A DNA stretch of 44,879 bases from assembly GCA_021205645.1 (NCBI GenBank), contig JAJPXE010000114.1, forward strand, positions 1-44,879, written 5' to 3'. The position numbers were made by a program, and so were the translations under genes. The notes under the pieces were generated by a model. That model did no database searches, was not told where the DNA came from, and was given only the letters and a program-made list of their open reading frames with translations. Source of the DNA: Candidatus Gastranaerophilales bacterium. Its GTDB lineage: Bacteria > Cyanobacteriota > Vampirovibrionia > Gastranaerophilales > Gastranaerophilaceae. This document shows positions 4,916-44,879 of this stretch, one piece after another. How positions within the stretch are numbered: position 1 is the first letter of the stretch; every line of letters starts with the position of its first letter.

Positions 4916-4948
4916 AATGCCGCTCACCGAACGAGGTGGTGGTGATTA

Positions 4949-19850: not shown

Positions 19851-20039
19851 ATGAAGTTGTATGTTTGTAGAGGAAAGCGGCAAGCCAATTATTTTTTGGA
19901 CTATGGCTGCAAACTAATTCGTATTGATTGTGACAAGACAGCAAAGGGGTATCTTGTCTTTATCTTTCACTGGAATGGCGCACTTGATGCTGCGTTAAAG
20001 TCATGGGAGACAGATAAAGACACCTATTTGATTTCTTGA
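19851..20039 (+). CDS. DUF5659-like small protein (paralogue 3 of 4)
   Basis: QANYFLDYGCKLIRIDCDKTAKGYLVFIFHWNGALDAAL. AAGGAGA SD. Confidence 0.5.
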   Translation: MKLYVCRGKRQANYFLDYGCKLIRIDCDKTAKGYLVFIFHWNGALDAALKSWETDKDTYLIS

Positions 20040-20059
20040 GTTTGAAGGAGGATAAAGTT

Positions 20060-20869
20060 ATGGGAGAAGTTTGTAACATTCTTCATGAATCTGGAATCTA
20101 TTCAATTGAGTGTTTGATAAACGGTAAAAAGTACATCGGACAATCGATAGATATGAAGAAAAGAGTCATACAGCATAGATGCGATTTAAGACGACATGAC
20201 CATATGAACGAAGATTTACAGTCGGATTGGGATGAGTATGGGGAAGGAAATTTTAGTTTTGACGTATTGGAAAAATGTGAAATTTCTGAATTGGATAATA
20301 AAGAACGATTTTATATTGGTTGTTGCAAATCAAATCTTATTGAGTTTGGATATAATATTGAGGCTGGTGGAATTTGCCCTGGCCCAATGTGCGACAGAAC
20401 AAAAGAGAAACAGTCAAAAGTACAGACTGGAAAAGTCCGTACAGATGAGACAAGAAAGCGCCTTTCTGAATCTCATTTAGGAGAGAAAAATTCTATGTAT
20501 GGGAAGCATCATACAGACGAAACAAAAAAGAAAATCTCTGAAAATCGTCGTCCAGTGCGAGGCAAAGACTATCCTAATTATGGTAAGCATTTTTCTGAGG
20601 AGACGAGGGCTAAACTTAGTGCTTCTCATATTGGAAAAAACACTGGAGCAAGCCATCCTCGTCATCATTCTATCTATTGCCCAGAGTTGGATGAGTATTT
20701 TGATACAATTACTGCGGCGACACGGAAATATGGAGTTTCTGATGCACATATCAGTAGCTGCTTGTCTGGAACAAGAAAATCCGCTGGCAAACATCCCATA
20801 ACTGGAGAAAAATTACATTGGCTTGACGCCAAAACTGGTACAAACAATTTGCAACAACTTGAAAATTGA
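20060..20869 (+). CDS. free-standing GIY-YIG homing endonuclease (I-TevI-like, with NUMOD3 repeats)
   Basis: GIYSIECLINGKKYIGQS...R...H catalytic motifs. Repeated ETRKRLSESHLGEKN, DETKKKISENRR and EETRAKLSASHIGKN units. C-terminal HTH-like region. GAAGGAGGA SD. Confidence 0.85.
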   Translation: MGEVCNILHESGIYSIECLINGKKYIGQSIDMKKRVIQHRCDLRRHDHMNEDLQSDWDEYGEGNFSFDVLEKCEISELDNKERFYIGCCKSNLIEFGYNIEAGGICPGPMCDRTKEKQSKVQTGKVRTDETRKRLSESHLGEKNSMYGKHHTDETKKKISENRRPVRGKDYPNYGKHFSEETRAKLSASHIGKNTGASHPRHHSIYCPELDEYFDTITAATRKYGVSDAHISSCLSGTRKSAGKHPITGEKLHWLDAKTGTNNLQQLEN

Positions 20870-28076: not shown

Positions 28077-31000
28077 ATGGCAGATAAAAAAAGACAAGTT
28101 GTTGTAGAGCTGTCGTTAGATACAAAAGACGCAGAAAAGAATATGAAAAAAATTACTGCAAATCTCGAAACGATGGCTGAAAGTGCCGGGAAATATGGTG
28201 ATTTTTCCTATTTTACGACATTATTAGACTATCTTGCGCAGATAGAAGATAGGTTGAATGAGTTACAAAAGCAAGACTCTGTTAAATTTGAAGATATTTT
28301 TGGGAAGAATGCAACAACTTTTATTGACTCTATTACCAAGTCGGTATCTTCGCTTTTAGAGGCTCCAGAACTTCTTGAACAGGCTGTATCCAAAATTGCT
28401 TCTATGGACTTTTCTGGAAATGCGGAGGAGGCACGAGAGGCAATTGAATTGCTTATAAATGTTTATCAACGTCTTGGACTTGAGGCCCCGAATGCTTTTG
28501 ACGGATATGAAAATTGGGATACCTCCACTTTAAGGTCTAAAGTAGATGATATTAAAAAAGCTGCGACAGATTTAAGTGGTATTGATTGGGGAAAAGCATT
28601 TAATGTAGAGGTTCCAGGTTCTATAGAAGAACAAATAAAAGAACTTGATAAACAGGTTACTAACCTTCAAAGAGTGAAGACTAGATGGAATAAAGCGATT
28701 GAAAACTGGGAACTCAATGGCATTGTTCCCAAGGGCAAAGAAGGCTCTACAAAAGAAGAAATTGACGAATATTGTGATATGCTTAGAAGCAATATTGAAC
28801 AGATTGATGAGCAAATGGAGTCGTTGTTCTCTAAAAAGTACGATTTGTCTCCAGATTCTATTTTCCAAGATTTTAATGATGCTGTAACAAAAGCATTTGA
28901 TTTTGATTTAGACACCGAGGAACAATCGCTTCGGACGCACTTAGATAAAATGCAAGCAATGGTGGACGCCTGTAGGGAAAATATTGATAGCGGTCTTGCC
29001 AACGAGTTGCAGGGAGTGCTTGATGATATTAATAGATATACCTTTAAACCAGATGAGGTTGATACAAGTGGCATTCAGAAAAGCATGGAAGCCATTATTG
29101 AGAAATATCAAAAAACTAGCGAGGCTGCCAATGATACAAAGCAAGAAGTTGTAAGCGCAAATGACGAAATAAATAACAGCTTCAATTCCAGTGGGGATGG
29201 CAATCCTAAAGCCGTACAACAGTATGAAGACCTTGGGGAAGCTGCTGCCAGTGCTGGTGATGCGGCCAAAGGTGCCGGAGATGATATTAAGAACGCCCTA
29301 AGTGGTAGTATTGGCAACGGAGCAAATGAGACTAAAAACAGTCTAAATGATGTGGCTGATGCCGCAGAAAATGCAGGAGATGCGACGAAGGCTGCCGGGA
29401 GTGCAATGGAAAGCGCATTTGATGGCAGTAATCCAAAAATAGCGGAATTACAGCAGCAGCTTGAAGAGATGACAAAAAAAGCGGCAGCAGCAGAACAAGA
29501 AGCGTATGATTTAGGGTCTGATGTATCTCATTTGCAGCAAGAGAACAGCGAACTTGGGAACTCATTATTAGATGCAAATAACAAAATTGAGGAAATGACT
29601 AAAAACCTGTCGGAGCAGGCTACCAAAATACAACAGCTTGAAAGTACAGTCTCTGGTATGGGCGATGGTTGGAGTAAGTATTTTGATGCAAGTGACCAAA
29701 TTGAAGCACAAAAGAAGCAAATAGCGGAGTTATCAACAACGTGCGAAACACTTCGGAGTGTACTCGATAACACGGATTCTGTGTGGGGCATTGAGAAGAA
29801 GCTAGAGTCTGTTTCAAGTGCGCTTCAACAGATGTCTGAAATGGTTGTTCAGTCCGCAGAGAAGGTCGACCAGCTTCAAAAAGAGTTTTCTGAGTTGAAT
29901 ACGCAAGCAGGAACCAATTCGATTTCAAGCGAGTCCTTTAATGAAATACTTCAAATATTAAAAGAGCTTGTTGCAGAGATGCAACCGTTTGTGTCCGCGT
30001 TGAATAATAGCGAGACTGCCCTAGGACAAATGGCAACTGAGGGCGGAGCCAGCATTCAGACATTGGTTGGGCAGCTTGAATCGCTTAGTGCAACACTTGA
30101 TGAGATTTCACAGAAATCTTTGGGAATAAACATTTTCCAGAAAGCAAGTGGGAGTGGCGGTACAGACCTTGCCGCATATAAAGAATCTTTGTTGTCTTTA
30201 CAAGACCCATTAACGCAGACAATAAGACTGGCACAAACGTTATCTGGCACAAATGGGACAGTTGCGCAAGCTGCGTATGGTATTGCTGATGCTATTGGCA
30301 GCCTTTCCAATGTAAAGAGTAAAGCGGCTATTGAAAATAATGCTAACGAATTACAACATTGGTACAACGTTCTTGTCCAAATAATTGAAGCCTCTGGGCA
30401 AGCGGAACAAATCAATTTTGAAAAGATTAAATTCCCAACGGCAGCAGATTTCAGTACAGATGCTACAGATAAATTCTTGCAGAGCCTCACAGATATAAAT
30501 ACGCAGTCGCAAACCACGACGGTTGAAACGACGCAAAATTTCACTGAGCTGGTTGCCGTTTTAGAGAAACTTTCAACCACCCTTGACGAGGTTGTCAAAA
30601 CATTCGATGGGCTAAAACTCAATATTAGCACAGAAGAACTTAGTCAATCTTTGGAACAAATTAAGCGACTTGAGCAGGAAATCGCTGATTTGAAGCAGCA
30701 GATGGCAGAAGTTAATGCAAATACTGGTGAAACAGGCGGCATGAAGGAAGGCTTTAAAGAAATTGCTGATGCTGCGGAAGATACGGCTCAAAAAGTTGAA
30801 GGCATTAAAGATAGTGTTGAGGAAACGCAGCAAGCGCTTGAAGATGCTGGTAAGGCGGCTAAGGAAGCGTTTGGTGACGAGGCCACCGCAGGTATAGATA
30901 ACGTACAAGATGAGGTAAAAGAGACTGTCGATGTTACACAGGAAGCTGCGCAAGATATTAAGCAGGCAGGAGAAGAAATCAAAAATGCGTTTAGTGATAC

Positions 31001-32476
31001 TGATATATACAGTTATCAGAACGCACTTGAGGGTTCACTTCAAAGAAAAAATAGCAATACGTTCCAGTGGATAGTTCAAGATGCTGACGAGGCTCTTGTA
31101 GAGGTGACTGCGGTTCTTGGGAAACTCGGAGATATTACGATTACAAAGAATCCAATTGAAGATATATTTTCCAGTGACTACAGTTCAAAATGGTTGAAGA
31201 ACATCCAGTCCGAGATGACTAAAACTATTAACGAGCTTGCTCAGTCTATGACAAAATTATCAAAGATGGACGTTGGTACGCAGCAGTTTACTGAATTGGA
31301 AAATCGAATTTCTGAATTGCGAGTTAGACTTTCAGACTTACAGGGGCAGTTGAATAATAGCACTTCTATCGGAACTGGAAATATCGAGAGCCAGCTTAAT
31401 AAGATATTCTCTAATTTTGGAGTAAGCGCAAGCCAGGAGATTGAAAAAGTAAAATCGTCATTTAATAGTTTGAGTGATGAAGCAAAGTCTAGTCTAAACG
31501 AGTTAGAGCAAAATGTTGATGGCGTTGAGGCAGATATTAAAGCCTTAGACGATGCGTTTGAAAATTTCAAATCTGCGCAAACTTTTGACGAGAAAACTGC
31601 GGCGGCGCAAGAGCTTGCAGAGGCTATATCCAAGACAACTGCTGAAGTCAAAGTTTTAAAAACGGCGGAGGATACATTAAATTCATCACAAAGTTTGTCT
31701 ACTGATATTCAGACATGGATGGATGAAAACCAAAAGGCTGCCAAGCAATTTGGGGACAGGCTGGATGAGCTGCAAGATAAATTAAAAAATAATATTGACC
31801 CGGCTAAACTAAAAGAGTGTGCGCAAGAGTTTGAAAATATCCAAGCTGAGGCTAAAAGTGCCAATTTGGTTACAAGCGATTTTGCTAAGTCGGCGGGCAA
31901 ACTTGCCCTTCAGCTTGCTGGCCTTGATACAACTTATGAAGTATTCCAAAAAATAGTTCAGGTCGTGCGCGAAGGCATTGAGGTTGTAACCGAGCTTGAT
32001 TCTGCTATGGCACAGTTAAAGATTGTTACTGGGGCCACAGACAGTGAGATGACGCAGTTCTTAGAGGAATCTATCTCGCTGGCGAAAGAGCTTGGGCAGA
32101 GTGTCAGTGACATATTGGGGACTATTGAAACGTTCTCTCGTTTGGGATACGACCTCGAAGAAGCCTCTACATTAACTGAATTTGCCAGTATTTTATCTAA
32201 TGTAGCAGATGTTGACATTGATGATGCGACGACTGGTCTAACTTCAATTGTTAAGGCATATGGGTATGCTGCTGAGGATGCCGAGCAGGTGTCCGATATT
32301 TTAATCACAGTTGGACAAAATTACGCAATTAGCGCGGAAGAAATTATGACTGCCTTGGAGAAATCTGGTTCTGCGTTGAGCGCTACGGGACTTTCTCTGG
32401 AGGAGTCTGTTGCGTTGTTGGCGGCTGCGAATAGCTCAATTCAAGATGCCTCCAGCGTGGGCACTGCGATGAAGAC
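28077..32476 (+). CDS. tail tape measure protein, exon 1
   Basis: GGGAGGTGAG SD. About 1,466 codons of coiled-coil-like sequence ending in a TMP-core-like ...SSVGTAMKT. The ORF runs a few codons into the intron (stop at 32510). Confidence 0.75.
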
Positions 32477-33040
32477 AGGATTTTGTCTTTATGTACAGAA
32501 ATGTGCATAGTGAACATATTTAACTGCGGGTAATGGGTAAAGTCTTGCACCACAATAGCGGGGAAACCACGCTATGAAGGGACGAAAGTAGAAACAACGC
32601 AAGAATGGCATATGGCTAAAAGCCTAAGTGCTTGTACAATCCCTGTTCCGCAACTAAGCTCCCTAACGTACCCCGTGGAACACACGGTACTTGAGTCGAG
32701 GGAGAAAGTTCAACGACCATTCCCATGTAGGGGTTGCAGGGAAGAATAAAGGTGGAAACCCTGAATACTGCAACCATCAGAAGTAGGGCGCAATCGCAAA
32801 TGGCGTGGGTGAAAACCCCTTAAATCGAAAAGGTATGCTTGCTGCTCAAATAGAACGTGAGTAAGAAATGGTCTTATCTCATATGAGAATATGAGTATTA
32901 TAAAGCCAAGAATGTTAAGTAGAGGCCCACGGTAAAGTGGGGTGCCACTTTTCTTGATGCGGGTATCTATTTGTGGTACAATAAAAACAGTAATAGGCTT
33001 TGTAGTAGATGTGTGTTGCGAACACATTTAAAAATGTATG
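32477..33040 (+). mobile_element. group I intron 1 of TMP gene (ORF-less)
   Basis: R-like GTTCAACGACCATTCCC (GACCAT 32715-32720) pairs with S-like AAGAAATGGTCT (ATGGTC 32868-32873). Clearly homologous to TMP intron 2. P1 candidate is AAGAC (32472-32476) / GTCTT (32485-32489). Ends ...TATG. Boundaries are good to a few nt. Confidence 0.7.
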
Positions 33041-33415
33041 AGTTTCGGCACGAATTCGTGGAGCCACCACTGAACTAGAGGAGATGGGAGAAGAAACCGA
33101 GGGACTGGCAGATGGCCTTTCAAAATATAATGATGAAATTATGGCACTCACTGGCGTCTCTATTCTCAAAGAAGGAACAACAAACGAGTACAAAGACCTT
33201 TATGATATTTTCTATGAATTATCTCAAATTTGGGATACATTGTCTGATACCGCACAATCTCGTGTGTCGGAGATTCTTGGCGGCACAAGGCAATTAAGTG
33301 TAACTTCCAGCTTAATCAATAATTTCAGTGATGCTGAAGGAGCGCTTACAGATGCTTTGGAATCTAGTGGCACTGCACTAGCTTCCAATGAGGTGTATAT
33401 GGACACCATCGAGGC
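33041..33415 (+). CDS. tail tape measure protein, exon 2
   Basis: Frame opens at 33042 with no SD. The junction gives ...AMKT|VSARIRGATTELEEMGEETEGL, a TMP-core-like motif. Ends ...NEVYMDTIEA. Confidence 0.7.
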
Positions 33416-35688
33416 AGTGTGTTTTTTGCCTCTTTGTATAGAAATATGCAAATTAGGACACATCTAAATGCAGGTAAAGGATAAGAGCCTTGCACCATAA
33501 TAACAGGGAAACCATGTTATGACGGGGCGAAAGCAGAAACAACGCAAGGATGGCATATGGTCAAAAACCTAAGTGTTATAGTAATTCCTGTTCATGCAGC
33601 GAAATACCCTAACGTTATTCACAGACCATGTGATAGTTAGTCGAGGGTATACGTTCACAGACTATCCCCATATCGGGGCCGCAAAAATAAAATAAAGGTG
33701 GAAATCCTGAATATTGCGGCCATTAGGAGTACGGCGCAAGCAAAGGCGCGGGAGAATCCCCCATAATCGGAAAAGGTGTGCTTGCTGTTCTAAGGAACGT
33801 GAGTAAGAAATAGTCGAGTCTCATATGAGAATATGAGGGTTATTAACTTTAAATAAAGGAACTATGGTATGGAAGCAGAAATTTATGAGCAAATAATTGC
33901 AGATTATAAAAACGGCACATCTTTTAAAGAAATAGGAGAAAAATACCAATATGATGTAAAATATCTTAAAAACAAGTTGGCGCAAGACGGCTACTATATT
34001 CCAGGTAAATATTTGCGATTTACAGAAGCCGAAATTAGTTTGATAAACCAATATTATCCAGATGGAGATTTAGACGAGCTGTTCCAAAAAATTCCAAATC
34101 ATACTCCAGAGGCGATAATATTAAAGGCTAAAAAGATGGAGACTGATTCTGGGGAATATAGTAGCTTAGAGAAAATGAAGCATCTTATTTCTGGTAAACC
34201 GTATACAATGGATGAAAGCACATTTAATCCAGATGATGGAAGTTTTTGTGCAATTACGCAAGATGGGTATAAAGTTCTAATTCGTAGAACAACGTTGAAT
34301 AAAAAGAAACTCCCAGACTTTTTCAATGTAAAGAACCCGTATACAGTGGACAATATTCGGCACTATACAGAATTGAATGGAATTGAAACAGAGCTGTTGT
34401 CAAATAGTTATTTTGGGCAAAATGAAAAACTTGATTGGAAATGTGGTAGATGTGGAGTGCATTTCACAGCCTCTTGGAAGCAATTCCTACGAGGAAAACG
34501 GCTATGTGACGCTTGCACCAAAAAAGCGACCAGAGAAAAACAGCAACTTGATATGGACTATGTAATTAAGGTTTTGTCTGAATGTGGGTACATATTAAAA
34601 GAATATAATGAAGATGTGCCAATTTCTAAACAGTCTATTGTCTTGGAGGATAACGAGGGATACAAATATGAGGCAATATGGAATCATGTTTTAGACGGAA
34701 TCAAGCCGCATTGTTTTGACCCGGCAAATAAGTTTACGATTGAGAACATTAATCATTATCTTTCACGCACGGGGCGCTCCGATTACTCTTGTATCTCGGA
34801 GGTATATACTGGAAATCATTCTCCATTGGCATTTGTACATAAACCATGTGGGACAATTTTCAAGTCTTCTTTGGTTGCCATGCAGGGAAAAGAGATAGAA
34901 GGTGCGGAGGAGAGACGATGGAAAACTTGTCCAAATTGCTTTCCACGGAGAATTGAATCACTTCATGCCTCAGTCCTCAAACAGGTGTTCTTACATGAGT
35001 ATCCAGACACAGTTATAGAAGACCAGTCATGTAGAAATCCAAATAGCGGACTTCCGCTCCCAACCGACATAGTAAATCATAGGTTGAAAATTGCCGTTGA
35101 GATTCAAAGTCAATACCATGACGGAGAACGTCAGGCAATAAAAGATGCGATTAAAAGAGAGTTTTGGCTCAACAAAGGATACAAATTTTATGGCCCAGAT
35201 ATTCGTGATTATTCAGTGCTTGGTATTGTGCAAGTATTTTTTCCTAGTATTAAAGAACTGCCGACATATTTAAATTATAATTATTCGTGTAGTGCAAGTA
35301 CCAAAATTGCTGAAGATTTGTTGAATGCAGGGCTTACGATAGGTGAAGTTGCGGATGCAATGGATGTGAAATATTCTACAATCTATGACATAGTACAATC
35401 AAAACGGATTGTTCTTCCTGCTAATTATACAAGAAGGCCAAAAAACGTAAAGGCGATTGTTCAGTTGGACGAAAATGGAGAATATTTAAATACCTTTTCG
35501 TCTTTCCTGGATATAGAACGAAATGGTTATAACAGGTATTCTATACGCAAAAAACTGAAATCTGGAGAGCATCTTTCTCAAGGCTTTTATTGGATTTTTG
35601 AGAAAGATTATAAACAAGGAGTAGTAGAAATATAATTTTAAAGTTAATAACCGGCTAGACGTTGCGAATCTAGCTAAATATGAAAATG
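33416..35688 (+). mobile_element. group I intron 2 of TMP gene (carries homing endonuclease ORF)
   Basis: R-like CACAGACTATCCCC (GACTAT 33660-33665) pairs with S-like AAGAAATAGTCG (ATAGTC 33810-33815). Long stretches are near-identical to intron 1. P1 candidate is GAGGC (33411-33415) / GCCTC (33428-33432). Ends ...AAAATG (35688). Confidence 0.7.
33869..35635 (+). CDS. intron-encoded putative homing endonuclease (PD-(D/E)XK / Vsr-like core with HTH and Zn-ribbon modules)
   Basis: Sits after P7' of intron 2. Candidate nuclease core is LPLPTDIVNHRLKIAVEIQSQYHDG...KREFWLNKGYKF. Two repeated modules each end in a Cys cluster (CGRCG...CDAC and C...CPNC). HTH-like ends. Confidence 0.55.
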   Translation: MEAEIYEQIIADYKNGTSFKEIGEKYQYDVKYLKNKLAQDGYYIPGKYLRFTEAEISLINQYYPDGDLDELFQKIPNHTPEAIILKAKKMETDSGEYSSLEKMKHLISGKPYTMDESTFNPDDGSFCAITQDGYKVLIRRTTLNKKKLPDFFNVKNPYTVDNIRHYTELNGIETELLSNSYFGQNEKLDWKCGRCGVHFTASWKQFLRGKRLCDACTKKATREKQQLDMDYVIKVLSECGYILKEYNEDVPISKQSIVLEDNEGYKYEAIWNHVLDGIKPHCFDPANKFTIENINHYLSRTGRSDYSCISEVYTGNHSPLAFVHKPCGTIFKSSLVAMQGKEIEGAEERRWKTCPNCFPRRIESLHASVLKQVFLHEYPDTVIEDQSCRNPNSGLPLPTDIVNHRLKIAVEIQSQYHDGERQAIKDAIKREFWLNKGYKFYGPDIRDYSVLGIVQVFFPSIKELPTYLNYNYSCSASTKIAEDLLNAGLTIGEVADAMDVKYSTIYDIVQSKRIVLPANYTRRPKNVKAIVQLDENGEYLNTFSSFLDIERNGYNRYSIRKKLKSGEHLSQGFYWIFEKDYKQGVVEI

Positions 35689-35868
35689 AAAAACAAGCCA
35701 ATTCAGTGCTGCTGTTCAAGAACTCGCATCTGATGCTCTTGACACAGACCTAATTAAAAATATCGTAGACCTTGGAACGGACTTAATTGAAGTCCTAGAT
35801 GCAATCATAGATAATGTCGGAATGCTTGGCGTCGCAATTGGCGCTGTTGGTATTGCGGCATTCGCAAA
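35689..35868 (+). CDS. tail tape measure protein, exon 3 (3' end uncertain, 35866-35878)
   Basis: Reads KTSQFSAAVQELASDALDTDLIKNIVDLGTDLIEVLDAIIDNVGMLGVAIGAVGIAAFAK, a typical TMP core continuation. The frame hits TGA at 35879 inside sequence resembling the 5' ends of introns 1 and 2. Confidence 0.6.
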
Positions 35869-36326
35869 GAGTTTTGTTTGACCCAAAAATATGATGAGTC
35901 TCCAAATTCATCACGCATTGGGTGACAAATCCGCAAAAAGCGGAGACAAACGTGGACGAGGCTTGGCGTTGCGCCGCAGGCATAATTAACCTGCGGCTAC
36001 ACTCCACGCACAAGTCCATGAGTAGTTCTCTTTTAAAACAAAAACTAAGGGGTAAATGCTGGAAACACCGGTTAAACCGTTCTGCCTGAATTTTTTAGGA
36101 GCGAAAGCAGAAACAAGTGAACGGCTGGCGCAAGGGAATACATAAGCCTAAACGCTACGCGACGCGAATAGCGGAGCAGATGGTCAATCAGCAGGACGGC
36201 ATGAGCTGTAAAAGCGAGTGCAATCCTCAGAGACTACCCACCCTTCGGGCTGCTACGCATATACAAACGCGGCAACCTGTAATGTATAGTCCAAATGCGG
36301 AAAAACAGGCAGCAAAGCAAAAAAAC

Positions 36327-36362
36327 GGGAAGATGCCCCCGCAGTAACGAGAACATCTTCCC
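36327..36362 (-). terminator. rho-independent terminator (minus strand)
   Basis: Minus strand reads GGGAAGATG...CATCTTCCC followed by GTTTTTTT. Confidence 0.6.
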
Positions 36363-36368
36363 TGCGCA

Positions 36369-36455
36369 CTAGGCGCAGAAGCGGTACCTGACCGAAGTCC
36401 GTACCTGGATACGAGCCTTAACTCGTACCTTTACAGTACACTTAACTTTAGCCAT
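36369..36455 (-). CDS. 28-codon highly basic mini-ORF (may be non-coding)
   Basis: Minus strand has an AAAGGAGGTGG SD, 6 nt, then ATG. Translates MAKVKCTVKVRVKARIQVRTSVRYRFCA. Lies between a consensus promoter and a terminator, but also inside intron-structured sequence. Confidence 0.3.
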   Translation of the reverse strand: MAKVKCTVKVRVKARIQVRTSVRYRFCA

Positions 36456-36551
36456 GTGTACCACCTCCTTTCTAGGCCGTCAGGGAAAGAGGGTGTCAAC
36501 GACTTTCCCATTTCGGCTCTAAAAAGCAAAGCAAAAGGTGTTACTACACAT

Positions 36552-36580
36552 ATTATATACGGGCTTGGTATTTTTGTCAA
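36552..36580 (-). promoter_or_regulatory. perfect-consensus sigma-70 promoter (minus strand), firing antisense into the intron core
   Basis: Minus strand reads TTGACA (36580-36575), exactly 17 nt, TATAAT (36557-36552). Confidence 0.6.
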
Positions 36581-36723
36581 TGCGCGTTGCTTTGTTACCT
36601 TAATTATATTCTGAGAACCTATCTCTCGATTGTGGTTCCCCTGGCGCGGGGATGATGGGGGGCGCCATTAACATATTTTATATTCATTTTAGAAATAGTA
36701 CAAGAAATATGTCGTAAAAAGGC

Positions 36724-36752
36724 TTGACAACATCCTTGCGTAGATTTATACT
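36724..36752 (+). promoter_or_regulatory. sigma-70-type promoter for the cassette + strand genes
   Basis: TTGACA (36724-36729), 17 nt, TATACT (36747-36752). Lies 40 nt upstream of the GGAGGGAAATATG start. Confidence 0.6.
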
Positions 36753-36792
36753 TTTAATAAAAATACGGGAGGTGTTGTTTTTGGAGGGAAAT

Positions 36793-37104
36793 ATGCAGAG
36801 AAAACCAAACATCCCACCAGATGGTTTGGCGCGTAAACGACGCAAATCTGGAAGGCCGTTGTATAGGGGTATAATACATTACACTGGAGACAAAAACATT
36901 TCTAATAGTAATGGTTCTTTTATTGTTTATACAGGGCAATATAAAGGTGTAAAGCATTTTAATAAAAAATTGGTAATCAGATGGGAAACAAAGAAGCCTA
37001 TCACTAATGGGCTACAGGCAGCATCTGATGTACCGAAAGAGGGAGCGGGCAGACCTATTTTACCAAAGCCTGCCCCAACAAAAAGGGACGGTGATAAAAA
37101 ATAG
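36793..37104 (+). CDS. small basic protein with AT-hook-like GRP motifs (103 aa)
   Basis: GGAGGG SD. ARKRRKSGRPLYRG and EGAGRPILPKP resemble AT-hook cores. Lys-rich tail. Confidence 0.55.
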   Translation: MQRKPNIPPDGLARKRRKSGRPLYRGIIHYTGDKNISNSNGSFIVYTGQYKGVKHFNKKLVIRWETKKPITNGLQAASDVPKEGAGRPILPKPAPTKRDGDKK

Positions 37105-37229
37105 ATGCACTTTTAGTTTGTATACAGGGTATAGCCATTATTATAGATGGGCTTATACCGGGACTTATATGCTGCGAAGTCTTTTTATTCCTTAGCTCTA
37201 AAAAAGTCTCTCATTTAGAATTAAGGTTA

Positions 37230-37754
37230 TTGGCATATATTATTATTACGAGAGCAATTAAGTCGTTGATGGCGTTATTACATGGCTTTATTTTTGCGCA
37301 ATGGCATCCAGGGGATTTACAAAAAATTATAGTATATTACTTTTTTGCTGTTATTCTTGGGGTTATGTCCGCAATTATTTGGAAAAGTGATAAGTTCTCC
37401 CGTGCTTTGTTGAAATTTTCCAGGAAGACAACAGACTCTGATATCTTCAATGGGCTACTTGATTTTGATGGGGGCACGGGGGTAAATGTTGTGTTGAAAA
37501 ATGGAGATATTATAAATGGCTCTGTTTTTCGAGTAGAAGAAAACGGAAATGATTCTTGGATAGCATTACATGATTATGATATATATCAACATGATGGTCT
37601 TGAAGTTCATTCTTCTGATTTTAAAGAGGAAGGAATTGTATTGATAAAGCGGAATGATATTTTAAGGATTCATTATACCTACACCCCAAATACTAAAATG
37701 TCAGATGCGCTCGTGCAACAAAGGGGACGGCGCATAGAAAAAAATAAAAAATAA
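37230..37754 (+). CDS. membrane-anchored protein of unknown function (174 aa)
   Basis: Two N-terminal hydrophobic helices (SLMALLHGFIFAQW, IIVYYFFAVILGVMSAIIW) and a beta-rich C-terminal domain. TTG start with a weak SD, so the start is uncertain. Confidence 0.45.
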   Translation: MAYIIITRAIKSLMALLHGFIFAQWHPGDLQKIIVYYFFAVILGVMSAIIWKSDKFSRALLKFSRKTTDSDIFNGLLDFDGGTGVNVVLKNGDIINGSVFRVEENGNDSWIALHDYDIYQHDGLEVHSSDFKEEGIVLIKRNDILRIHYTYTPNTKMSDALVQQRGRRIEKNKK

Positions 37755-37790
37755 CAAAACCGAGCAAGTATTCACGCCTGCTCGGTTTTA
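37755..37790. terminator. bidirectional rho-independent terminator between convergent cassette genes
   Basis: CCGAGCA / TGCTCGG stem flanked by an A-run on the left (AACAAAA) and a T-run on the right (TTTTA). Confidence 0.65.
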
Positions 37791-37848
37791 ATGTTTGCTT
37801 ATTTATTTCGTATTAGAATTTATAACCGCAATCTTGGCATTGGTGGGG

Positions 37849-39174
37849 CTAGTATCGTTCGATGGAGTCGATGTATGTTTCTGGCTGAATGTTAATATTG
37901 TAGTCGTGGATGAAGTTATAATCATCAAGCCATTTATAAAATGCCTTATCATTTTCAAATTTCATCCCATTTATATCCATGCGCCTTTCGAGAAAATGAA
38001 GTACCTCTGTTTTGGTCATAATGCCATCATAGATTGCATGAGCTAAAATAGAACGCCGTGTTCGCGCAGATAGTGCATCTCTTTGCGATACATTATACCC
38101 AAGTTGGTGTAAAACGCTTTCTTCGCTCCAAGAGCTGTATTCCCAATCGTAAAAGCCAGAACCTAGCATTCTTATATCGTTTGCTAGTGGGCCAAGGATA
38201 TTTCGATAATACTCATAGGCGGAATAGCTTAACATCTTTCGTTTACAATAATAGCAATATTCGAGGTCAATTTTCCACTCTTCTCCGCTGTCGTCTTTGA
38301 CGATTGTAGTAACTTGGGTGATTGGATGATGGTGCCTAAAACAGACAATCAAACCTTTGTAAACATATAATGTGTTATTTGGTTCGGGCTGCGGTGGCTC
38401 TGAGAATTGAAATTTGGGACTTGCTTTTATTCTCTGTGGAATTTCTTTTGGTTGCACCGGAGCGGGTCGGTGCTGCACAGCGCAAAGTCGAGCAACTGTT
38501 TCATCACGAGCTTTTAGCTTCATCTTTGGAACAATTTGTAGCGCATCTGGTGTGATTGTGTAGTATATGTCGGCAATAGCCCAATATTCTTTGCCGCTAA
38601 TTATGACAGATTCTCCCGGACATTGAGCATCCATCACGGCAATAATTCTGACCATTTTATTCGGGACTCGGTATACGGGGATAAAATACTTAGCCTTAGA
38701 AAGATATGAATCAAGTTTTCTGGCGTCTTTTAATGTACAAATGCTTCCGAGTGAGACTTTTCTGGTCAGATATTCGTCTTTAGCCGTTTTCGCATCTTCC
38801 CACTCTTTTTGTATACGAGCGTTGCGAGAAATTGGTGCCAGTTCTGGCTTTGGGGCTTCTCTCTTTTGCATCTCGGCTATTTTCTTGCGGAGATAATAAC
38901 GGATTGGGTTTAAGTATTCCTCTCCATCAACTTTCATTTCTGGTATAATTGTCAGTGCTTCAATTGGGAACTCCATCGGCCAGGAAAGCCGCGCATAATA
39001 TTGCCGATGGTTGATTTTGATGATTCTAACTCCAGAGCATTCTTCTTCTACTACAGGTACAACCAATGCCGTTTCAATGTTTTCTTGCACATGGACTACG
39101 AGAAAAAGTGCATCATCAGTCCATACTCCACGGTTTTGCTTGCAAATATCGCCAATAGATGGAGTCTTGTACAT
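37849..39174 (-). CDS. 441-aa protein of unknown function: tandem N-terminal barrel-like repeats, Cys/His cluster, helical C-terminal domain
   Basis: Third gene of the minus-strand operon. The internal repeat SIGDIC...ALVVPVV..C.G.RIIKI....YYA......P.EALTIIPEMKV matches SLGSIC...VRIIAVMDAQCPGESVIISGKEYWA....TPDALQIVPKMKL. Cys/His cluster CFRHHH...CYYC. Confidence 0.6.
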   Translation of the reverse strand: MYKTPSIGDICKQNRGVWTDDALFLVVHVQENIETALVVPVVEEECSGVRIIKINHRQYYARLSWPMEFPIEALTIIPEMKVDGEEYLNPIRYYLRKKIAEMQKREAPKPELAPISRNARIQKEWEDAKTAKDEYLTRKVSLGSICTLKDARKLDSYLSKAKYFIPVYRVPNKMVRIIAVMDAQCPGESVIISGKEYWAIADIYYTITPDALQIVPKMKLKARDETVARLCAVQHRPAPVQPKEIPQRIKASPKFQFSEPPQPEPNNTLYVYKGLIVCFRHHHPITQVTTIVKDDSGEEWKIDLEYCYYCKRKMLSYSAYEYYRNILGPLANDIRMLGSGFYDWEYSSWSEESVLHQLGYNVSQRDALSARTRRSILAHAIYDGIMTKTEVLHFLERRMDINGMKFENDKAFYKWLDDYNFIHDYNINIQPETYIDSIERY

Positions 39175-39202
39175 ATGGAATCACCTTTTTCTGCTTTAGG
39201 TT

Positions 39203-39736
39203 CTACCACTTATATCCGCAATCCTTACACTGGAATTGTGACCTGGCCGACTTGCTGAAAATGCCGAGAGTTGCGACGCCTACGGCCTTGCGAGTGAAAG
39301 AGATGGTCTTGATGTTGGTGGAGCCGCAGGTGGGACAGTGGGGGATATGGGCGCGGCGTTCGTGGAACTTGTAGGTATAATTGTACCAGGTGTCATTGAG
39401 AGGATTGGGTTCTGTATGTTTGGACGGGATAAAGCTAACAGAACAGTTATCTGCCTCAAAGTGTTCTTTAATATACTGAACGTTTTCTTCTTTTATCCCC
39501 CCAAGTATAATACTACCATTCTTGTCAAGTAATTTAGTTGCTTCCGCTTTTTGAATCCCAAAATTTTTTAGGACAGCCACAATAAACGATTTAGCTCCAC
39601 CTATGCTATTTATTGTCATGTCAAATAGATTATTTTCTTTTTCCTGCATAGTGCTAATTGGGTATCCACAATGAATACACACAGAAGATTTATCGCTTAT
39701 TTGCTTCCCGCATTCTGGGCAATTTATAAGCGCCAT
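39203..39736 (-). CDS. double zinc-ribbon protein with central ribosomal L7/L12 C-terminal-domain-like fold
   Basis: CPECG..(8)..CIHCG at the N-terminus and CPTCG...CKDCG at the C-terminus. The centre, FDMTINSIGGAKSFIVAVLKNFGIQKAEATKLLDKNGSIILGGIKEENVQYIKEHFEADNCSVSF, aligns by eye with the L7/L12 CTD. AAGGAGG SD. Confidence 0.6.
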   Translation of the reverse strand: MALINCPECGKQISDKSSVCIHCGYPISTMQEKENNLFDMTINSIGGAKSFIVAVLKNFGIQKAEATKLLDKNGSIILGGIKEENVQYIKEHFEADNCSVSFIPSKHTEPNPLNDTWYNYTYKFHERRAHIPHCPTCGSTNIKTISFTRKAVGVATLGIFSKSARSQFQCKDCGYKW

Positions 39737-39756
39737 ATAATTCCTCCTTGTCTTAT

Positions 39757-40191
39757 TTATAGCCCCAATATATTTTTTCTTTTTGCGTCGTATTCGTCTG
39801 GGGTTATGTACCCGGCATCTTTTAATTCGTCTAGCTCTTTAAGCTCTGCCATCTTATTATTTGCTTTAGGTTGTGTCTTTGGTTGGCTAGATGCAGATTT
39901 TTTCTTGTCACTTCCTAGGCCAATTACTCCTGAAGCGAGTAAAATTACACCAATGACAAGGATAATGGCACCTATAACAATGACAATTTTGTAATTGTCC
40001 AGACGCCCTTCCCAGATTGATATTGTTTTGCGTGAAGAATCACTTGAGCCAAATAATGAGTCCAGCCCAGATTGTGCGCTAATCATATTATTGGCTAAAG
40101 AGTACCTATTATATCCGTAGGCTGTAATTCCACCACCGACGACGGTTGATACGCCGCCAATGATTGCTGCTGTTTTAGATGTAGAAGCCAT
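39757..40191 (-). CDS. membrane protein with C-terminal SHOCT domain
   Basis: Gly-rich hydrophobic N-terminus and a TM helix IVIVIGAIILVIGVILLASGVIGLG. C-terminus MAELKELDELKDAGYITPDEYDAKRKNILGL is a SHOCT signature. TAAGGAGGAAAC SD. Confidence 0.65.
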   Translation of the reverse strand: MASTSKTAAIIGGVSTVVGGGITAYGYNRYSLANNMISAQSGLDSLFGSSDSSRKTISIWEGRLDNYKIVIVIGAIILVIGVILLASGVIGLGSDKKKSASSQPKTQPKANNKMAELKELDELKDAGYITPDEYDAKRKNILGL

Positions 40192-40255
40192 AGTTTCCTC
40201 CTTACGCTTAATGCTATTGTTATTTCTTAGTAATTATTGCATTTACTTTTCTGTA

Positions 40256-40284
40256 ATTTTACCACAACTTTACATAAAAGTCAA
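40256..40284 (-). promoter_or_regulatory. sigma-70-type promoter for the minus-strand operon
   Basis: Minus strand reads TTGACT (40284-40279), 17 nt, TGgTAAAAT (extended -10, hexamer 40261-40256). About 65 nt upstream of the 40191 start. Confidence 0.6.
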
Positions 40285-40321
40285 TCTTCTTCTTGTCTGC
40301 TTTCAAGGAGATAAAAGATGG

Positions 40322-43300
40322 AACAAGTATAGCTGAGAAGGCGCTTCAGGCTTTTAGTACAACGATTGGCAAGGCCAAAGATGCAGAAGTTGATTTTGCC
40401 TCTGGCTTTAGCACTGGTAGTATTGTAAGTTGGGGGACTGCTATTGTTGCCATTATTGCGGCTGTGGTGGTTCAGTATCAACAATATAAACAATCTCTCC
40501 TTGAGGCAGTGCAGGCCGCTGAAGAATCTTTAACTTCTTGGAATGAACAAAACGATTCTCTTGAAGAGTACAAAGAACGTGTTGAGGAACTGAGAACTTC
40601 ATTAGACTCCGGCAATCTCACTGAGGAAGAAGCTTACGATGCTAAGACTGAACTGCTTGAGATTCAAGATGCGCTAAGTGAATCTTATGGAGTTTCTGCC
40701 GACGCACTAAACTTGTTAAACGGTGAGATGAAAACTCAGCTTGAATTAATAGATAGCTTGGGTGTAGCCGAGGCTAATCGAGAATTGACAGCAAATAAAG
40801 AAGGTATTGACGAGGCAACTAAGCAAATGGAGACGTTGCGTAACTACTTCGCAGATGTTGACGCAATGGATGCAGAGACTTTAGATGCAGTACAAAAAAT
40901 TGTAGACAAGTACGACGATTTGTCTTTACTCCAGAATGAGAATGGGACATATAGAATAACATTTACTGGAGATGCTACCCAAGCCACAGAGACTATGGAT
41001 GCTTTGGCTATAGACCTTCGTGCATTAGAAGACGACGTTGGAGAAAACGCCATTCTCGACTCGCTTCTTAGTTATACGTCCGATTCTTACAACGCCGCGA
41101 AAGAAGTTTTGGATACCTATCAGAGCGTTTATGATGAAGCTTGGCTTGCAAAGTTAGTCACCGACACTTCCAAGGTTGCGGACAATCTTTCCGAGGGGCT
41201 TACGCTCCCAGAAGGAGTTACTACTTATTCAGACCTTTACGAGAAATATGCTGAAGCTGTTGAGGACTACAATGAAGCTCTTGAAGATGGAGACGCTTCT
41301 AAAATTAAGGGAGCTAAAGACCAGTTTGACGCTGTAGATACTGTTGTCCAAGACCTGATGGGCGACGACAACATGGGCGGCTACGGTGATTTGTTCAACG
41401 AGATAGCCGACAGCCTTGATACTGCTTCGATTGCCGCACAAGATTTCAACAACGCTTTAAGCGGGGATTCTTTGCAAAGTGCCATAAGTGAAATTGATGG
41501 CTGGAGCGCTGATGAATTAAGCAATCAAATTTTCGACTTAGCTAATGCCAGCAATTCCTTAGTTGACATCTGGAGTTGGGGCGGAGATGAAGTATCCGGT
41601 TCGCTAGTTCAAATTATGGATGCGGCAGAAGAAGCCGGGGTCGTTACCAGTGAAAATGGGCAGTATACAGAGGAGCAAATCAACACGGTTATCAGTCTCC
41701 TTGAATCTCTCGGCTATATTACATCCGATGTTATTGAAAGCTCTGCTCTCTCAGTCGATGACCTTACCACAGCTTACGCTTCTGCCGAAGAAACAGTTGA
41801 GGGCCTAACAACAGCAATGAGCGAATCGGCTTCTGCCACTGGGCTTTCAGCGGACTCAATTAGCTTAGTAGAATCGGCCTTTGAGGGGCTGGACGACTAC
41901 GACGCTGCCGCACTGTTTGAGACAACTGCCAATGGCGTACATTTAAATAGAGAAGAATTAGAGCGGCTGAATGAAGAATACAGAGAGCAAGAGGCTGCAA
42001 AGTATTCAGATACGCTGGCAGACTTGAATGAGCAGTTATATGACGCACAGGCAGCCCTTGAAGCGGCTGGTGATGACCAAGAGGCGTATAATGCGGCGCT
42101 GAGTGACATTTCTTCGATTGAAACGCAAATTCAAGAAGTGCAGTTGTTGCAAGCACAATATGAAGGGCTTACTTCGGCCTACAATGATTTTGTGAATGCA
42201 CAAAGCGCGTCCGATGAACGTGATGCGTATGCAAACATTGGCGACAGTTATGAGGATTTAAATGACCTCATTAACGCCGGATGGGTCGGGGACTCAGAGA
42301 TTACAGAGTATCTTGATTTGTTGATTGCCGCCGATAAACGTACACAGGATAATTATGAAGACTGGAAACTCTTAACAAAAACTATCGAGGGAACCAATTA
42401 CAGCCTGATGGATTTCTTTCAATATGATGATGACTCTGGAGATTTGACTGTAAACGGGCTTGCGAACTTTTTGGACTCTCTGGATGCGTTGTTCGGAGAC
42501 GATATTATTAATATGGCCGAGGATGGCAGCTTCGCGCTTGACCTAACGGGAGAAAAGATTACAGAGGTTGCCGAGGGGCTTGGAACAACCGAGGAATTTC
42601 TTGAGTTAGTCGGTAAGGCCCTTATTGACGCGGGCATTGACGTAAAATTCGACGATGCCGCCGAGAGTTCGTCCACTCTTGCAGATGAAGTTCAGGAAGT
42701 GCAGACAGCTATCGCAGAGACGGCAGATACTGTCCAGGATGCTACTGATTCGTTGCGTGAAATGGGAGAGCTTGACGGCTTTACTTACAACCTCGATACA
42801 GACCTTGAGGGCATTACTGAGCAATTAACTGCCGCCAAAGAAGCCTTGTTGGATGAAAACGGTGAGATTAAGTTTGAAGCGGATACAGATGAGTATCAAG
42901 ACGCTATAACTATTCTTACTGCCCTTATACAAAAACAGCAAGAGCTTGAGAATGCAGACCGCGCTATTGTGCAAGTTGATGTTTCTGAAGCCAGCAGTGA
43001 TGTTGGAGAATTGGCGCGAGATATTCAAACACTCCAGGGCCAGCTTGATAATTATGAGGCCAATCTTAATATTGGTGCCGACACTTCTGATGCAGAAGAA
43101 CGTATCATTCAATATGTTGAAGAAGTTCAGACGCGGCTTGAAAACCTTGACGAGCAAACGGTAATAGACCTTGGGCTTGACGATGAGGATTTCCAGGCGG
43201 CACTTTCTAATGTAGCTAATACAGATATTGAAGCTGGCGCGACAGTTTCTCAGGAAGATTTAGATACTATCCAGGGCAAAATTGATGGAATCAGTGAAGA

Positions 43301-44487
43301 AGCACTAATTTCAGTTGGGCTGGCTGAAGACTCTGCAACAGCAGAGGAAACGCTAGAAGATATCCAAACTACCGTTGAGACGTTAAATGCTACACCAGAT
43401 GTTTCTATCACAGTTACAGTGACGACAAATGGGGCAGAAGAACTCGATAGTGTTCGCGCCGGATTGGAGTCCGTATCTGAATTTAGCGAAACGCAACAAA
43501 CTGCAAGCGGCGTTGTCGAATGGGCAAATGACGCCGGTGAAGTTGAAGAATATGCAGAGGTAGAGAAACAATCCAGCGGCACAGTTGCATGGGTGAATGA
43601 TGCCGCTTTGATAAATGCGTATATCAATCAAATGAAGTATGCCAGTGGCACAGTTGTTTGGTCGAATGATATTTCAAAGGTTAGGACTAGCTTTACTGCC
43701 ACCGGAACCGTGAAGTGGAATAACGCAAGCTCATATCTTGGAACTGCTCATGCGGCTGGTACGGCGGCGGCAAGGGGGAACTGGGGGCTTCCTGAAGACG
43801 AGGAGAATGTTCTCGTGGGGGAGGTAGCACCAGAACTTGTAGTTGACGTTAATTCTGGCCGGTATTATACCGTAGGAAACGATGGGGCAGAATTTGTAAA
43901 CCTACCAAGGAATTCGATCGTGTTCAACCACAAGCAAACCGAGGAAATATTACGTTATGGGCATATTGATTCGCGTGGTCATGCACTGGTTGAAGGAACT
44001 GCTTTGTATAGCGCCTCTGGAAGTTTGCACACAAGTACAAGCAGCACATCCAGTGCGAGTAAAAAATCAAGTAGCTCCAGTAGCAGTAGCTCAAAATCCA
44101 GTTCCAGTTCCAGCTCTAGCAGTTCTTCAAGCTCCAAGAAGTCTAGCAGCTCAAGCAGTTCGTCCTCGGCGGCGGCAGAGGCCGAAATTTATGACTGGAT
44201 AAGTGTTCTCCTTGATAGAATTGAAGCCCAAATTGAGTCTCTTGACCGTACTGCATCGAGCGCATACAAGAACTCTACAACGCGGCTAAATGCAACTCGA
44301 AGTGAAATTTCTGCGATTACGAATGAGATTGCTACACAACAATCTGCGTATGATTATTATATGCAGAAAGCTAATTCGGTTGGCCTGTCGAGCTATTACA
44401 AAAACCTCGTACAAAATGGCGACATTAAGATAACAGAAGTCTCAAGTGAAAGTACACAGGAAAAGATAGATGAGTATACCGAATGGT
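40322..44487 (+). CDS. tail tape measure protein, exon 4 (both ends approximate)
   Basis: Open frame from 40278 with no usable in-frame start. Hydrophobic segment WGTAIVAIIAAVVV followed by about 1,380 codons of acidic coiled-coil. Reads ...KIDEYTEW then TGA (44487-44489) at the start of intron-like sequence. Confidence 0.6.
44031..44170 (+). repeat. poly-Ser/Lys low-complexity tract within TMP exon 4
   Basis: TSTSSTSSASKKSSSSSSSSSKSSSSSSSSSSSSSKKSSSSSSSSS, encoded by mixed AGC/AGT/TCN codons. Confidence 0.8.
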
Positions 44488-44879
44488 GAATTTTTTTGTG
44501 CCCCGTTGCCTATTGTTAGGTGACGGTATTCTATTTAATTGCTGGAATATCCTAAAATTAACCAAACTACAGCGTGAGGATGAAATAAGCCTGGGCGCGA
44601 ATGTTGCGAAAGCAGAAAAAATTGGTTAAATAAGTACATGAGTAAAATCTAAATGCTTATGGGAGAAACGTCTGTGAGAGCAGGCGCTTTTTTTGTGCCC
44701 AAAATGGACAATCAGCAGCGAAGCTTCGAACAGAAGAACGTTCAACGACTATCCCTGAGATGGGAGTAGGGCCGCAAGCGGTTGGCGGCTCGAAAAGGTA
44801 GACTATGTAAATTTGATTTTATTGGCGTTATATTGCGTTACAATAAAAAGGATACGTTTATGTTAGTAGAGAATCAATA
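44488..44879 (+). mobile_element. group I intron 4 of TMP gene (5' part; runs off the window)
   Basis: TTTTTTTGTGCCC start resembles the other TMP introns. GCGAAAGCAGAAAAAATTGG and TGGACAATCAGCAGCGAAGC segments. R-like GTTCAACGACTATCCC (44741-44756). No S partner before the window end. Confidence 0.55.

Follow-up and report, generated by a model that had tools for sequence, protein, structure and literature searches.

Three genes that stand against the direction of all their neighbours on a contig of 44,879 nucleotides (nt; contig JAJPXE010000114.1 of the Candidatus Gastranaerophilales assembly GCA_021205645.1, in its whole length called the window here) raise the question of what kind of element they belong to and what their products do. 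A preliminary description of the sequence had proposed that these genes, here called g1, g2 and g3, form a new three-gene defence or exclusion system in the late region of a temperate phage. The window is indeed a phage fragment, with an Ant anti-repressor, terminase, portal and tail genes, and homing endonucleases. From the anti-repressor, and from relatives which are prophages, the phage is probably temperate. The most interesting result of the present analysis lay outside the frame of that description: the tape-measure gene is predicted to contain a group I intron, within which an accessory cassette with its own promoter runs in antisense. The autonomy of the unit and its lack of likeness to any named system were confirmed, the three genes did not hold together as a unit, and the intron setting had been missed.

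The putative intron, the third one of the tape-measure gene, covers 4,417 nt of the plus strand (35879-40295) as delimited by guide pairing, core covariation and unsplit homologues. Its 5' splice site is predicted after U35878, and the intron opens with the TGA which looks like the stop codon of the preceding open reading frame (ORF). The 3' splice site is predicted after G40295, and the intron closes with the supposed TTG start codon at 40293 of the following ORF of 1398 amino acids. Both exon ends can be bound by one guide on the plus strand, AGCGGA directly followed by GACAAA (35939-35950), which matches each of them at six of six positions. GACAAA would form helix P1 with the exon end UUUGUU (35873-35878), with a G.U pair at the cleavage site, and AGCGGA would form P10 with the exon start UCUGCU (40296-40301). 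A guide of 12 nt lies 30-65 nt into the element in all six phages compared, which are the phage of the window and those of the related loci L010, L033, L077, L084 and L096. The P1 pairing is complete in the window and comprises five of six positions in the other five phages, each time with the guide G opposite the final U of the exon. P10 reaches five or six of six positions in the six phages, TCTG(C/T) has a G in front of it in every case, and the exons are in frame. In addition guide and exon vary together, for example as AACAGA with UCUGUU in L084 and as GGAUAG with AUAUCU in L010. The stop codon at the junction is followed by CCCAA, and a G stands ahead of every 3' splice site. The spliced junction joining 35878 to 40296 would be expected to read, as a 24-mer, ...AAGAGTTTTGTT directly followed by TCTGCTTTCAAG.

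A catalytic core was delimited on the plus strand at 36049-36292 by RNAalifold and by conservation of the R and S elements. It is predicted to comprise the 5' strand of P3, AAGGGGUA (approximately 36049-36056), which pairs with the strand after R; the R element CAGAGACUACC (36228-36238), containing the 5' strand of P7 and the 3' strand of P3; and the S element UGUAUAGUCC (36283-36292), containing the 3' strand of P7. R, which was already given, and S, in the form AAUGUAUAGUCC, are invariant in the six phages and stand 53-59 nt apart around a variable P8 hairpin. P7 reads GACUA/UAGUC, P3 carries compensatory changes in L010 and L033, and P3, P7 and P8 are arranged in the topology of group I introns, the helix names having been assigned by inspection. 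RNAalifold applied to the six sequences yielded 55 base pairs, 19 of which showed compensatory changes.

If the element were instead the relic of a dead intron, the tape-measure protein would be made as two polypeptides, with a stop at TGA 35879 and a start at TTG 40293, and the DNA between them would be an intergenic hot spot for the small inserted transcription units of prophages known as morons. This alternative can point to the many relatives in which the conserved S-(L/F)-K motif begins precisely with a TTG or ATG, and to other phages in which the N part does not flank the equivalent slot. It does not explain why, in six phages that have diverged from one another, the guide still fits the two exon ends through compensatory differences, nor why the core helices covary. 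No Shine-Dalgarno sequence (SD) is found ahead of TTG 40293, this "TTG" always ends in the G required at a 3' splice site, and in L010 the ORF for the C part is conserved for about 215 codons before an in-frame start codon first appears. The stop at 35879 is followed by a structured element, which L010, L033/34, L077, L084 and L096 have at the same place, and in unsplit tape-measure proteins the two halves are about 25 amino acids apart. The intron reading was preferred because of the extension of the L010 ORF, the structured element after the stop and the guide matching both exons. The same three observations overturned the idea of a plain intergenic slot, which had been based on an N part ending like an uninterrupted homologue and on C parts that seemed to start with MSAF. 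A group II intron was also rejected, as the ORF of 588 amino acids in intron 2 of the gene encodes an HNH/treble-clef endonuclease and not a reverse transcriptase (RT), and no domain V was found.

Some observations weigh against an active intron at this site. The Rfam group I model RF00028 did not match the core at E<=10 in a search of 521 nt, nor did it match in L077, and Rfam yielded nothing useful at the gathering threshold or at E<=1 on 8 kb. Splicing in cis could be blocked or slowed by a terminator and 4 kb of cargo, which separate the core from the 3' splice site. Core motifs were present in only six of 94 loci scanned, and most g2 genes stand beside a big tail gene in other contexts. 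The missing RF00028 match and the terminator with its cargo speak for the relic as well, which on all the evidence is considered unlikely. The stretch 35879-40295 is thus assigned, on guide, core and homologues, to a group I intron of the tape-measure gene, and we infer that its RNA is removed from the tape-measure mRNA.

The remainder of this gene fits such an assignment. Exons 1 to 3 were placed on the plus strand at 28077-32480, approximately 33042-33420 and approximately 35690-35878 by means of PHROG pieces and the homologue in L010, and exon 4, which begins with SAFKEIKDG..., at 40296-44489 by its ORF and the guide pairing. The ORF 28077-32510 stops in the middle of PF10145, and the PHROG profile matched there continues at 33084-33467. 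By tblastn the first two pieces are colinear with an uninterrupted homologue of 587 amino acids in L010, and by eye the third is so as well. Intron 1 (32481-33041, plus strand) has no ORF and matches the whole RF00028 model with 27.5 bits (E 5.8e-5), a score below the gathering score of 50 and found only in a very short search space. Intron 2 (approximately 33421-35689, plus strand) was recognised by its identity to intron 1, which amounts to 76% of nucleotides over the 5' 425 nt from the exon junction, and contains the endonuclease ORF of 588 amino acids at 33869-35635. Taken together these pieces are predicted to be one tape-measure gene with three group I introns. In the related gut phage MT835469 (L009) these interruptions recur and contain other endonucleases.

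In the five related phages intron 3 is about 1.0-1.1 kb long, its sole ORF is a g2 gene, in antisense every time, and the g2 promoter lies in its last approximately 40 nt. In the window the 5' end of the intron is taken up by a normal core of about 400 nt, and foreign DNA fills the remaining stretch of about 4 kb up to the 3' splice site. This cargo contains two ORFs on the plus strand. The first (36793-37104) encodes a very basic protein of 103 amino acids with GRP motifs resembling AT-hooks, is accompanied by the promoter-like sequence TTGACA-17-TACTTT, and had no homologue in any library searched. The second (37230-37754) encodes a protein of 174 amino acids, the N-terminal part of which is hydrophobic and, as judged by eye, probably forms two membrane helices; it had no match in Pfam, PHROG, PADLOC or GenBank phages. 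The other three genes of the cargo are the antisense ones.

These occupy the minus strand at 39757-40191 (g1, 144 amino acids), 39203-39736 (g2, 177 amino acids) and 37849-39174 (g3, 441 amino acids). The ORF table agrees with the preliminary description on their positions and on the gaps of 20 nt between g1 and g2 and 28 nt between g2 and g3. That they are the only convincing minus-strand genes was also borne out: a window scan found GC and AT skew reversed only at 38-40 kb, and the remaining long minus-strand ORFs are shadows of plus-strand genes with PHROG matches. The reality of the genes is underlined by 481 homologues of g2 and, for g3, by an 87% identical homologue with a ratio of nonsynonymous to synonymous substitution rates (dN/dS) of 0.135. 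The claim of strong SDs holds for g1 (TAAGGAGG) and g2 (AAGGAGG), as read from the sequence, and less so for g3, where AAGGTGA is weaker.

The extended -10 promoter claimed for the cassette is present on the minus strand (40284-40256, TTGACT-17-TGgTAAAAT), within the last approximately 40 nt of intron 3 and directed away from the 3' splice site. The promoter scan alone was not above chance, with 15 sites against 11.3 expected. The sequence is identical base for base ahead of a homologous g3 gene in a distant genome, a metagenome-assembled genome (MAG) described below, and L010 has the counterpart TTGAAT-17-TGgTATACT. A shared stem-loop terminator was likewise found by sequence scan at 37755-37790, with a stem of 14 bp and a T-run on the minus strand; the plus-strand ORF of 174 amino acids ends there as well. 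The chromosomal copy of g3 has a related stem, ACCGAGCA..., 3' of the gene. With a promoter and a terminator of its own, a site in a late operon, variable presence among relatives and transferability as a unit, the cassette is an autonomous antisense transcription unit in the manner of a moron in the late region of the phage. Its consensus sigma-70-type promoter suggests that the host RNA polymerase may transcribe it without dependence on the late operon, and probably does so in the lysogen.

Whether the three genes form one system was examined by looking for them elsewhere. The closest relative of g3, a protein labelled P0002, stands alone between dnaG-rpoD and ftsH in the Clostridiales MAG GCA_020860385.1 (L001), outside any prophage. 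The same locus is found on nine short contigs from raw sequencing runs, which makes 10 contigs together with the MAG and more than 10 runs. In blastn, positions 37846-39189 of the window match L001 11329-9986 with 88% identity, and positions 40247-40309 match L001 9983-9921 with 86%. In L001 the promoter directly abuts g3, and blastn and alignment show g1 plus g2 (39190-40246, minus strand) to be a precise indel of 1,057 bp, the junctions of which share the motif GTGGTAnAA...CAGAAAA. Between g3 and P0002 the dN/dS given above for the whole gene falls to 0.06 in the C-terminal domain (CTD). As P0002 is under purifying selection and its promoter is intact, a solo g3 appears to be functional and tolerated. 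The stretch 9921-9983 of L001 keeps the last approximately 25 nt of the intron and a diverged version of the first approximately 17 nt of exon 4, in which about 7 of 17 positions differ. The chromosomal copy is therefore probably derived from a phage, as a piece of phage intron between rpoD and ftsH.

Among the best 80 g2 loci none had a g1 homologue and 76 were without g3; a g3-type gene occurred in four of the 80 and directly downstream of g2 in three. Upstream of the closest g2 homologues, which are 65% and 61% identical, g1 is absent. An adjacent pair of a g2-type and a g3-type gene is found in about 10 contexts including the window (L011/12, L017-19, L020, L021/22, L043, L091, L100, L115 and L116). 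Phage-type g3 genes are usually the second gene after a zinc-ribbon protein which shares the C-terminal module of g2, and others are preceded by a small membrane protein or lipoprotein (L009, L111-114). The idea that g1, g2 and g3 are obligate parts of one system, with a membrane sensor or anchor, a binder of translation factors and an effector, draws on the operon layout with its tight spacing and strong SDs, on the recurring pair, and on the small membrane proteins or lipoproteins in the place of g2. It is regarded as quite improbable in view of the complete lack of g1 homologues in related loci, of the solo g3 kept under selection with the same promoter in a chromosome, and of the rarity of g3 beside g2. 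The co-occurrence of the three families as a unit is thus essentially refuted, and the genes appear, on comparative grounds, to be separately acquired accessory genes and not a conserved unit. What stood of the proposed defence or exclusion system is the recurrence of the g2-type/g3-type pair and the vicinity of the g3 family to AbiJ-like/AbiH, GmrSD and Fic genes.

A toxin-antitoxin pair of g2 and g3, stabilising the prophage or the intron by addiction, would agree with a small upstream gene 28 nt ahead of a larger downstream gene and with the recurrence of this pairing. The solo g3 with intact promoter and low dN/dS does not go well with it, although an antitoxin elsewhere in that genome is conceivable, no toxin or antitoxin family was matched, and a likeness of g3 to MazF/PemK found no support. 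We consider such a pair very improbable.

The three proteins themselves largely have the features ascribed to them in the preliminary description. It had called g1 a membrane protein ending in a SHOCT domain, and this is correct: g1 has a single strong transmembrane helix (residues 68-91) and a weaker Gly-rich hydrophobic segment (8-25), and residues 115-142 of 144 match SHOCT (PF09851) with E 7.6e-8 and 32.3 bits at a gathering cutoff of 27. The function of SHOCT is unknown (PMC3581485), and a literature search for SHOCT together with phage defence turned up nothing relevant. No relatives of g1 were found in 87 related phage loci or beside the closest g2 homologues, nor was there a match in GenBank phages. 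From its distribution g1 is taken to be a lineage-specific membrane/SHOCT addition.

For g2 a zinc ribbon at each end of a domain resembling the CTD of ribosomal protein L7/L12 had been described, and profiles, homologues and structure prediction converge on this layout. The N-terminal ribbon matches PF13240 with E 5e-7, and the C-terminal one contains a long insert (CPxCGSTN...FG(I/L)FS...CxxCGYKW). Over its full length g2 matches phrog_2546, a family of unknown function, with E 2.5e-12. The middle domain of g2 itself matches the L7/L12 family PF00542 weakly (14.4 bits at a cutoff of 25.9, E 0.049), and PF00542 matches 22 of 58 aligned g2 homologues, the best with 1.5e-20. The AlphaFold2 model of g2 has a mean confidence (pLDDT) of 81.6, and its top Foldseek matches in the PDB were 1dd3 (E 2.9e-3), 2zjq_5 and 1ctf. 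Against the compact CTD chains 2zjq_5 and 1ctf the template modelling (TM) score was 0.80-0.81 with a root mean square deviation of 1.8-2.1 A (0.80 and 1.8 A for 1ctf), and against the full-length 1dd3 the TM score was 0.49. ClpS, which has the same fold as the L7/L12 CTD, was also among the structural matches. The middle of g2 is accordingly modelled as a diverged alpha/beta fold of the ribosomal L7/L12 CTD type.

The CTD of ribosomal L7/L12 is the docking site of EF-Tu and EF-G. The N-terminal domain for dimerisation and L10 binding and the hinge of the ribosomal protein are absent in g2; its N-terminus is a zinc ribbon, and it is therefore not a bL12 orthologue. In the g2 family both zinc ribbons are invariant and the middle domain is variable, with many members that have no L12 domain. 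The surface GLGLKEAKDLV is kept in several homologues and has diverged in g2 of the window. At least 514 relatives are present in IMG/VR, and in at least 50 of 80 phage loci the tape-measure C part is the neighbour of g2. Some IMG/VR contigs (L044, L045, L052, L065 and others) have two or three g2 paralogues in an array. Where the tape-measure gene of a phage is unsplit (L055-57, L064, L080), g2 is found two genes upstream on the same strand. In a prophage of Enterocloster clostridioformis (L013-L016) a g2 homologue is divergent from the large tail gene at the same position, and its neighbours, an AAA_15/AAA_21 ATPase with a partner of 295 amino acids, an S24 CI-like repressor and KwaB, make up a defence and lysogeny island.

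In g3 two tandem repeats of about 95 amino acids (residues 1-235) are followed by a linker and the CTD (approximately 265-441). The repeats, which had been noticed before, find each other in BLASTP with E 3e-6. Their reported likeness to SH3-like folds of the PemK/MazF type found no support: they had no match in Pfam including PF02452 at E<=10 and no sequence match in the PDB, and hhalign against MazF, Kid and EndoA gave a probability of 0.2%, with shallow profiles and approximate MazF sequences. The cluster CFRHHH...CYYC and the helical C-terminal domain were corroborated. The CTD consists of a zinc sub-domain of the form C-x4-H...C-x2-C and a helical sub-domain; the cluster corresponds to C278, H283, C307 and C310, all invariant, as are S353, Y360, R373, K388, W415, D418 and Q430. 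In the AlphaFold2 model the CTD has a pLDDT above 85, and the part with the N-terminal repeats lies below 50 and is unreliable. An HNH-type nuclease was considered for the zinc sub-domain and rejected, as the next helix has no conserved catalytic His or Asn and no structural match was found. PDB sequence searches with three g3 profiles gave only a marginal likeness to LIM zinc fingers (E 0.5). None of the three proteins had a match below E 0.01 in PADLOC-DB v2.0.0, which agrees with the earlier remark that no named defence system is recognisable, and library searches also found no enzymatic domain in g3 itself.

The family to which g3 belongs became visible by an exhaustive HMMER scan (E<=1e-3); a k-mer search had given one relative, and its version with the CTD profile 23 of the phage type. 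In the scan 1,391 representatives matched the CTD only (residues approximately 265-441), and residues 1-260 of g3 are shared with just one other protein, P0002. Stand-alone CTD proteins exist, the phage-type relatives have 284-636 amino acids and often consist of a coiled coil and the CTD, and the family is mostly chromosomal. Pfam was run on 71 members, and the N-terminal partner domains were LRR_5 in 11, dsrm in seven, an RNase III-like domain (PF14622) in six and classical RNase III (PF00636) in two, Macro in four, metallo-beta-lactamase in two, and beta-CASP, PIN and RT in one each. The RT fusion, P0031 (512 amino acids, L117 4672-6539), joins a retron-type RT to a CTD of the g3 type, and its RT part, which matches retron RT models (PADLOC RT_II-A, 7.7e-38), is the only PADLOC match among the 71. 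The CTD is placed where the effector sits in other single-gene retrons, and the upstream spacer of 330 nt contains inverted repeats of 13 nt (4832-4844 and 4927-4939). Rfam had no match on this locus. It is possible that P0031 is a new single-gene retron type.

In the explanation we favour, to which we give slightly better than even prospects, the locus is a composite antisense cassette in a spliced group I intron with g3 as a single-protein conflict factor. Splicing would remove everything between the splice sites from the tape-measure mRNA, and an essential late gene could in this way take up further genes in its intron and still remain intact. Among the ORFs found in this family of introns g2 is the resident one, in antisense, and promoter, g3 and terminator form a module that is mobile on its own. 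As the main actor, g3 would be an anti-phage or exclusion factor working as a single protein, in which the lineage-specific N-terminal repeats may recognise a trigger or confer specificity and the CTD may carry out the response or pass it on, with RNA or translation as the probable target. An accessory adaptor role is conceivable for g2, possibly in contact with a translational GTPase via its L12-like domain, and g1 would be an independent membrane add-on. A conflict factor is suggested because the CTD is fused to RT, RNase III, PIN, beta-CASP, Macro and LRR domains and has Abi and restriction genes as neighbours: three of five genome loci of CTD genes contained conflict genes, namely AbiJ-like plus AbiH, GmrSD plus Macro, and Fic. 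By these associations a defence role of the g3 family and the cassette is plausible.

Other results go against such a role. The defence-island evidence consists of just these three of five loci. No match to g3 was found in Pfam, NCBIfam, PHROG or PADLOC, and the best Foldseek matches of its model, E 0.13 in the PDB and E 0.21 in BFVD, are noise. The chromosomal CTD genes of the majority type have no g2 partner, and none was found in IMG/VR. Furthermore, the conserved position of g2 across phages fits a benefit for the phage at least as well as defence. In this main functional rival the cargo would serve the infection by the phage itself, as genes for early takeover via the host polymerase or for counter-defence, with the L12-like domain of g2 retuning translation. 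The frequent place of g2 next to the tape-measure C part, its paralogue arrays and the GLGLKEAKDLV surface retained by several homologues are in its favour, as are viral bL12 domains in larger proteins, for which interfaces to translation factors have been proposed (PMC6375957). It is difficult to reconcile with a g3 family that is mainly chromosomal and located in defence islands, with the solo g3 outside a prophage between rpoD and ftsH, and with an L12 surface which has diverged in the g2 of the window and a domain which many members do not have. We regard this alternative as doubtful.

An extension of the favoured explanation may be put forward tentatively. The intron in the essential tail gene would be a safe harbour that collects antisense genes transcribed by the host polymerase, its 3' end doubling as promoter and splicing hiding the insert. 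In that case g2 would represent a new type of protein resident in introns, with zinc ribbons and with or without an L7/L12 domain, possibly acting in intron maintenance or mobility or in translation, and the g3 CTD would define a new family of immune effectors or relays.

The window phage is rich in selfish elements also apart from the tape-measure gene. A homologue of phrog_8308 is split into the ORFs 4949-6976 and 7282-8079. The gap of 305 nt shares a motif of 24 nt (7155-7178) with intron 1 (32806-32829), and by this likeness it is probably a fourth intron. The head-gene region contains, at 20036-20869, a free-standing ORF for a homing endonuclease of the GIY-YIG type (phrog_314, E 9e-36). 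At approximately 43,900-44,489 the large ORF of exon 4, with a long poly-serine tract, comes to a stop at 44489 (...EYTEW*), and the L010 homologue continues; another interruption may be present just before the window end.

Group I introns with homing endonucleases are well documented in phages, for example in td, nrdB and sunY of T4, the DNA polymerase of SPO1, the terminases of LL-H and Moonbeam, and capsid and tail genes of cluster J mycobacteriophages (PMC2988022, PMC4299906, PMC3706429). Intron 3 resembles these in its location in an essential gene, in a 5' core followed by a long ORF-bearing extension and in the stop codon at its start, and introns 1 and 2 of the same gene are conventional, one ORF-less and one with an HNH-type endonuclease. 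It differs from them in a cargo of five ORFs and about 4 kb with no recognisable homing endonuclease, and in the antisense cargo unit with its own sigma-70-type promoter and terminator. A non-exhaustive search of the phage literature yielded no example of an antisense, self-transcribed intron cargo that is not an endonuclease. Morons are units of promoter, gene and terminator in the late operons of prophages, such as bor and lom of lambda and the superinfection-exclusion moron gp15 of HK97. Like them, the cassette has its own promoter and terminator, stands among tail genes and is variably present, and promoter, g3 and terminator move as a block; unlike them, it is multi-gene and composite and lies inside an intron within a gene.

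Modular immune proteins made of a single polypeptide include the RT-Toprim, RT-TIR and RT-protease types of retron and Abi systems, LmuA of Lamassu and Cap4-SAVED of CBASS. The g3 CTD shares with the retron and Abi proteins its joining to many alternative enzymatic or sensor domains, one fusion to a retron-type RT and sites in defence islands. It is distinguished from them by a zinc/helical fold without match in Pfam, PDB, BFVD or PADLOC, and g3 by having no recognisable enzymatic domain. Viral proteins with a bL12 domain are known in which the CTD is embedded in a larger protein (Mizuno et al. 2019, PMC6375957). This also applies to g2, which has homologues without the domain and a history of repeated acquisition. 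Unlike the domain in those proteins, that of g2 lies between two zinc ribbons, belongs to the Firmicutes gut-phage family phrog_2546, and is intron-resident and antisense. Without an N-terminal L10-binding domain g2 is not expected to be incorporated into the ribosomal stalk.

Two protein families have thereby become open to testing, one with at least 1,391 clusters and a zinc/helical CTD that is absent from Pfam, PDB and PADLOC, the other phrog_2546, an abundant phage family of zinc-ribbon proteins which often contain a ribosomal L7/L12 CTD. If the intron splices, self-splicing introns of phages can carry more than homing endonucleases and can be landing pads for independently transcribed genes in an essential structural gene at no coding cost. 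Annotators would miss such an arrangement, calling a split tape-measure gene and an "intergenic" island, and it would account for the variable hot spot at this place in widespread large phages of gut Clostridia.

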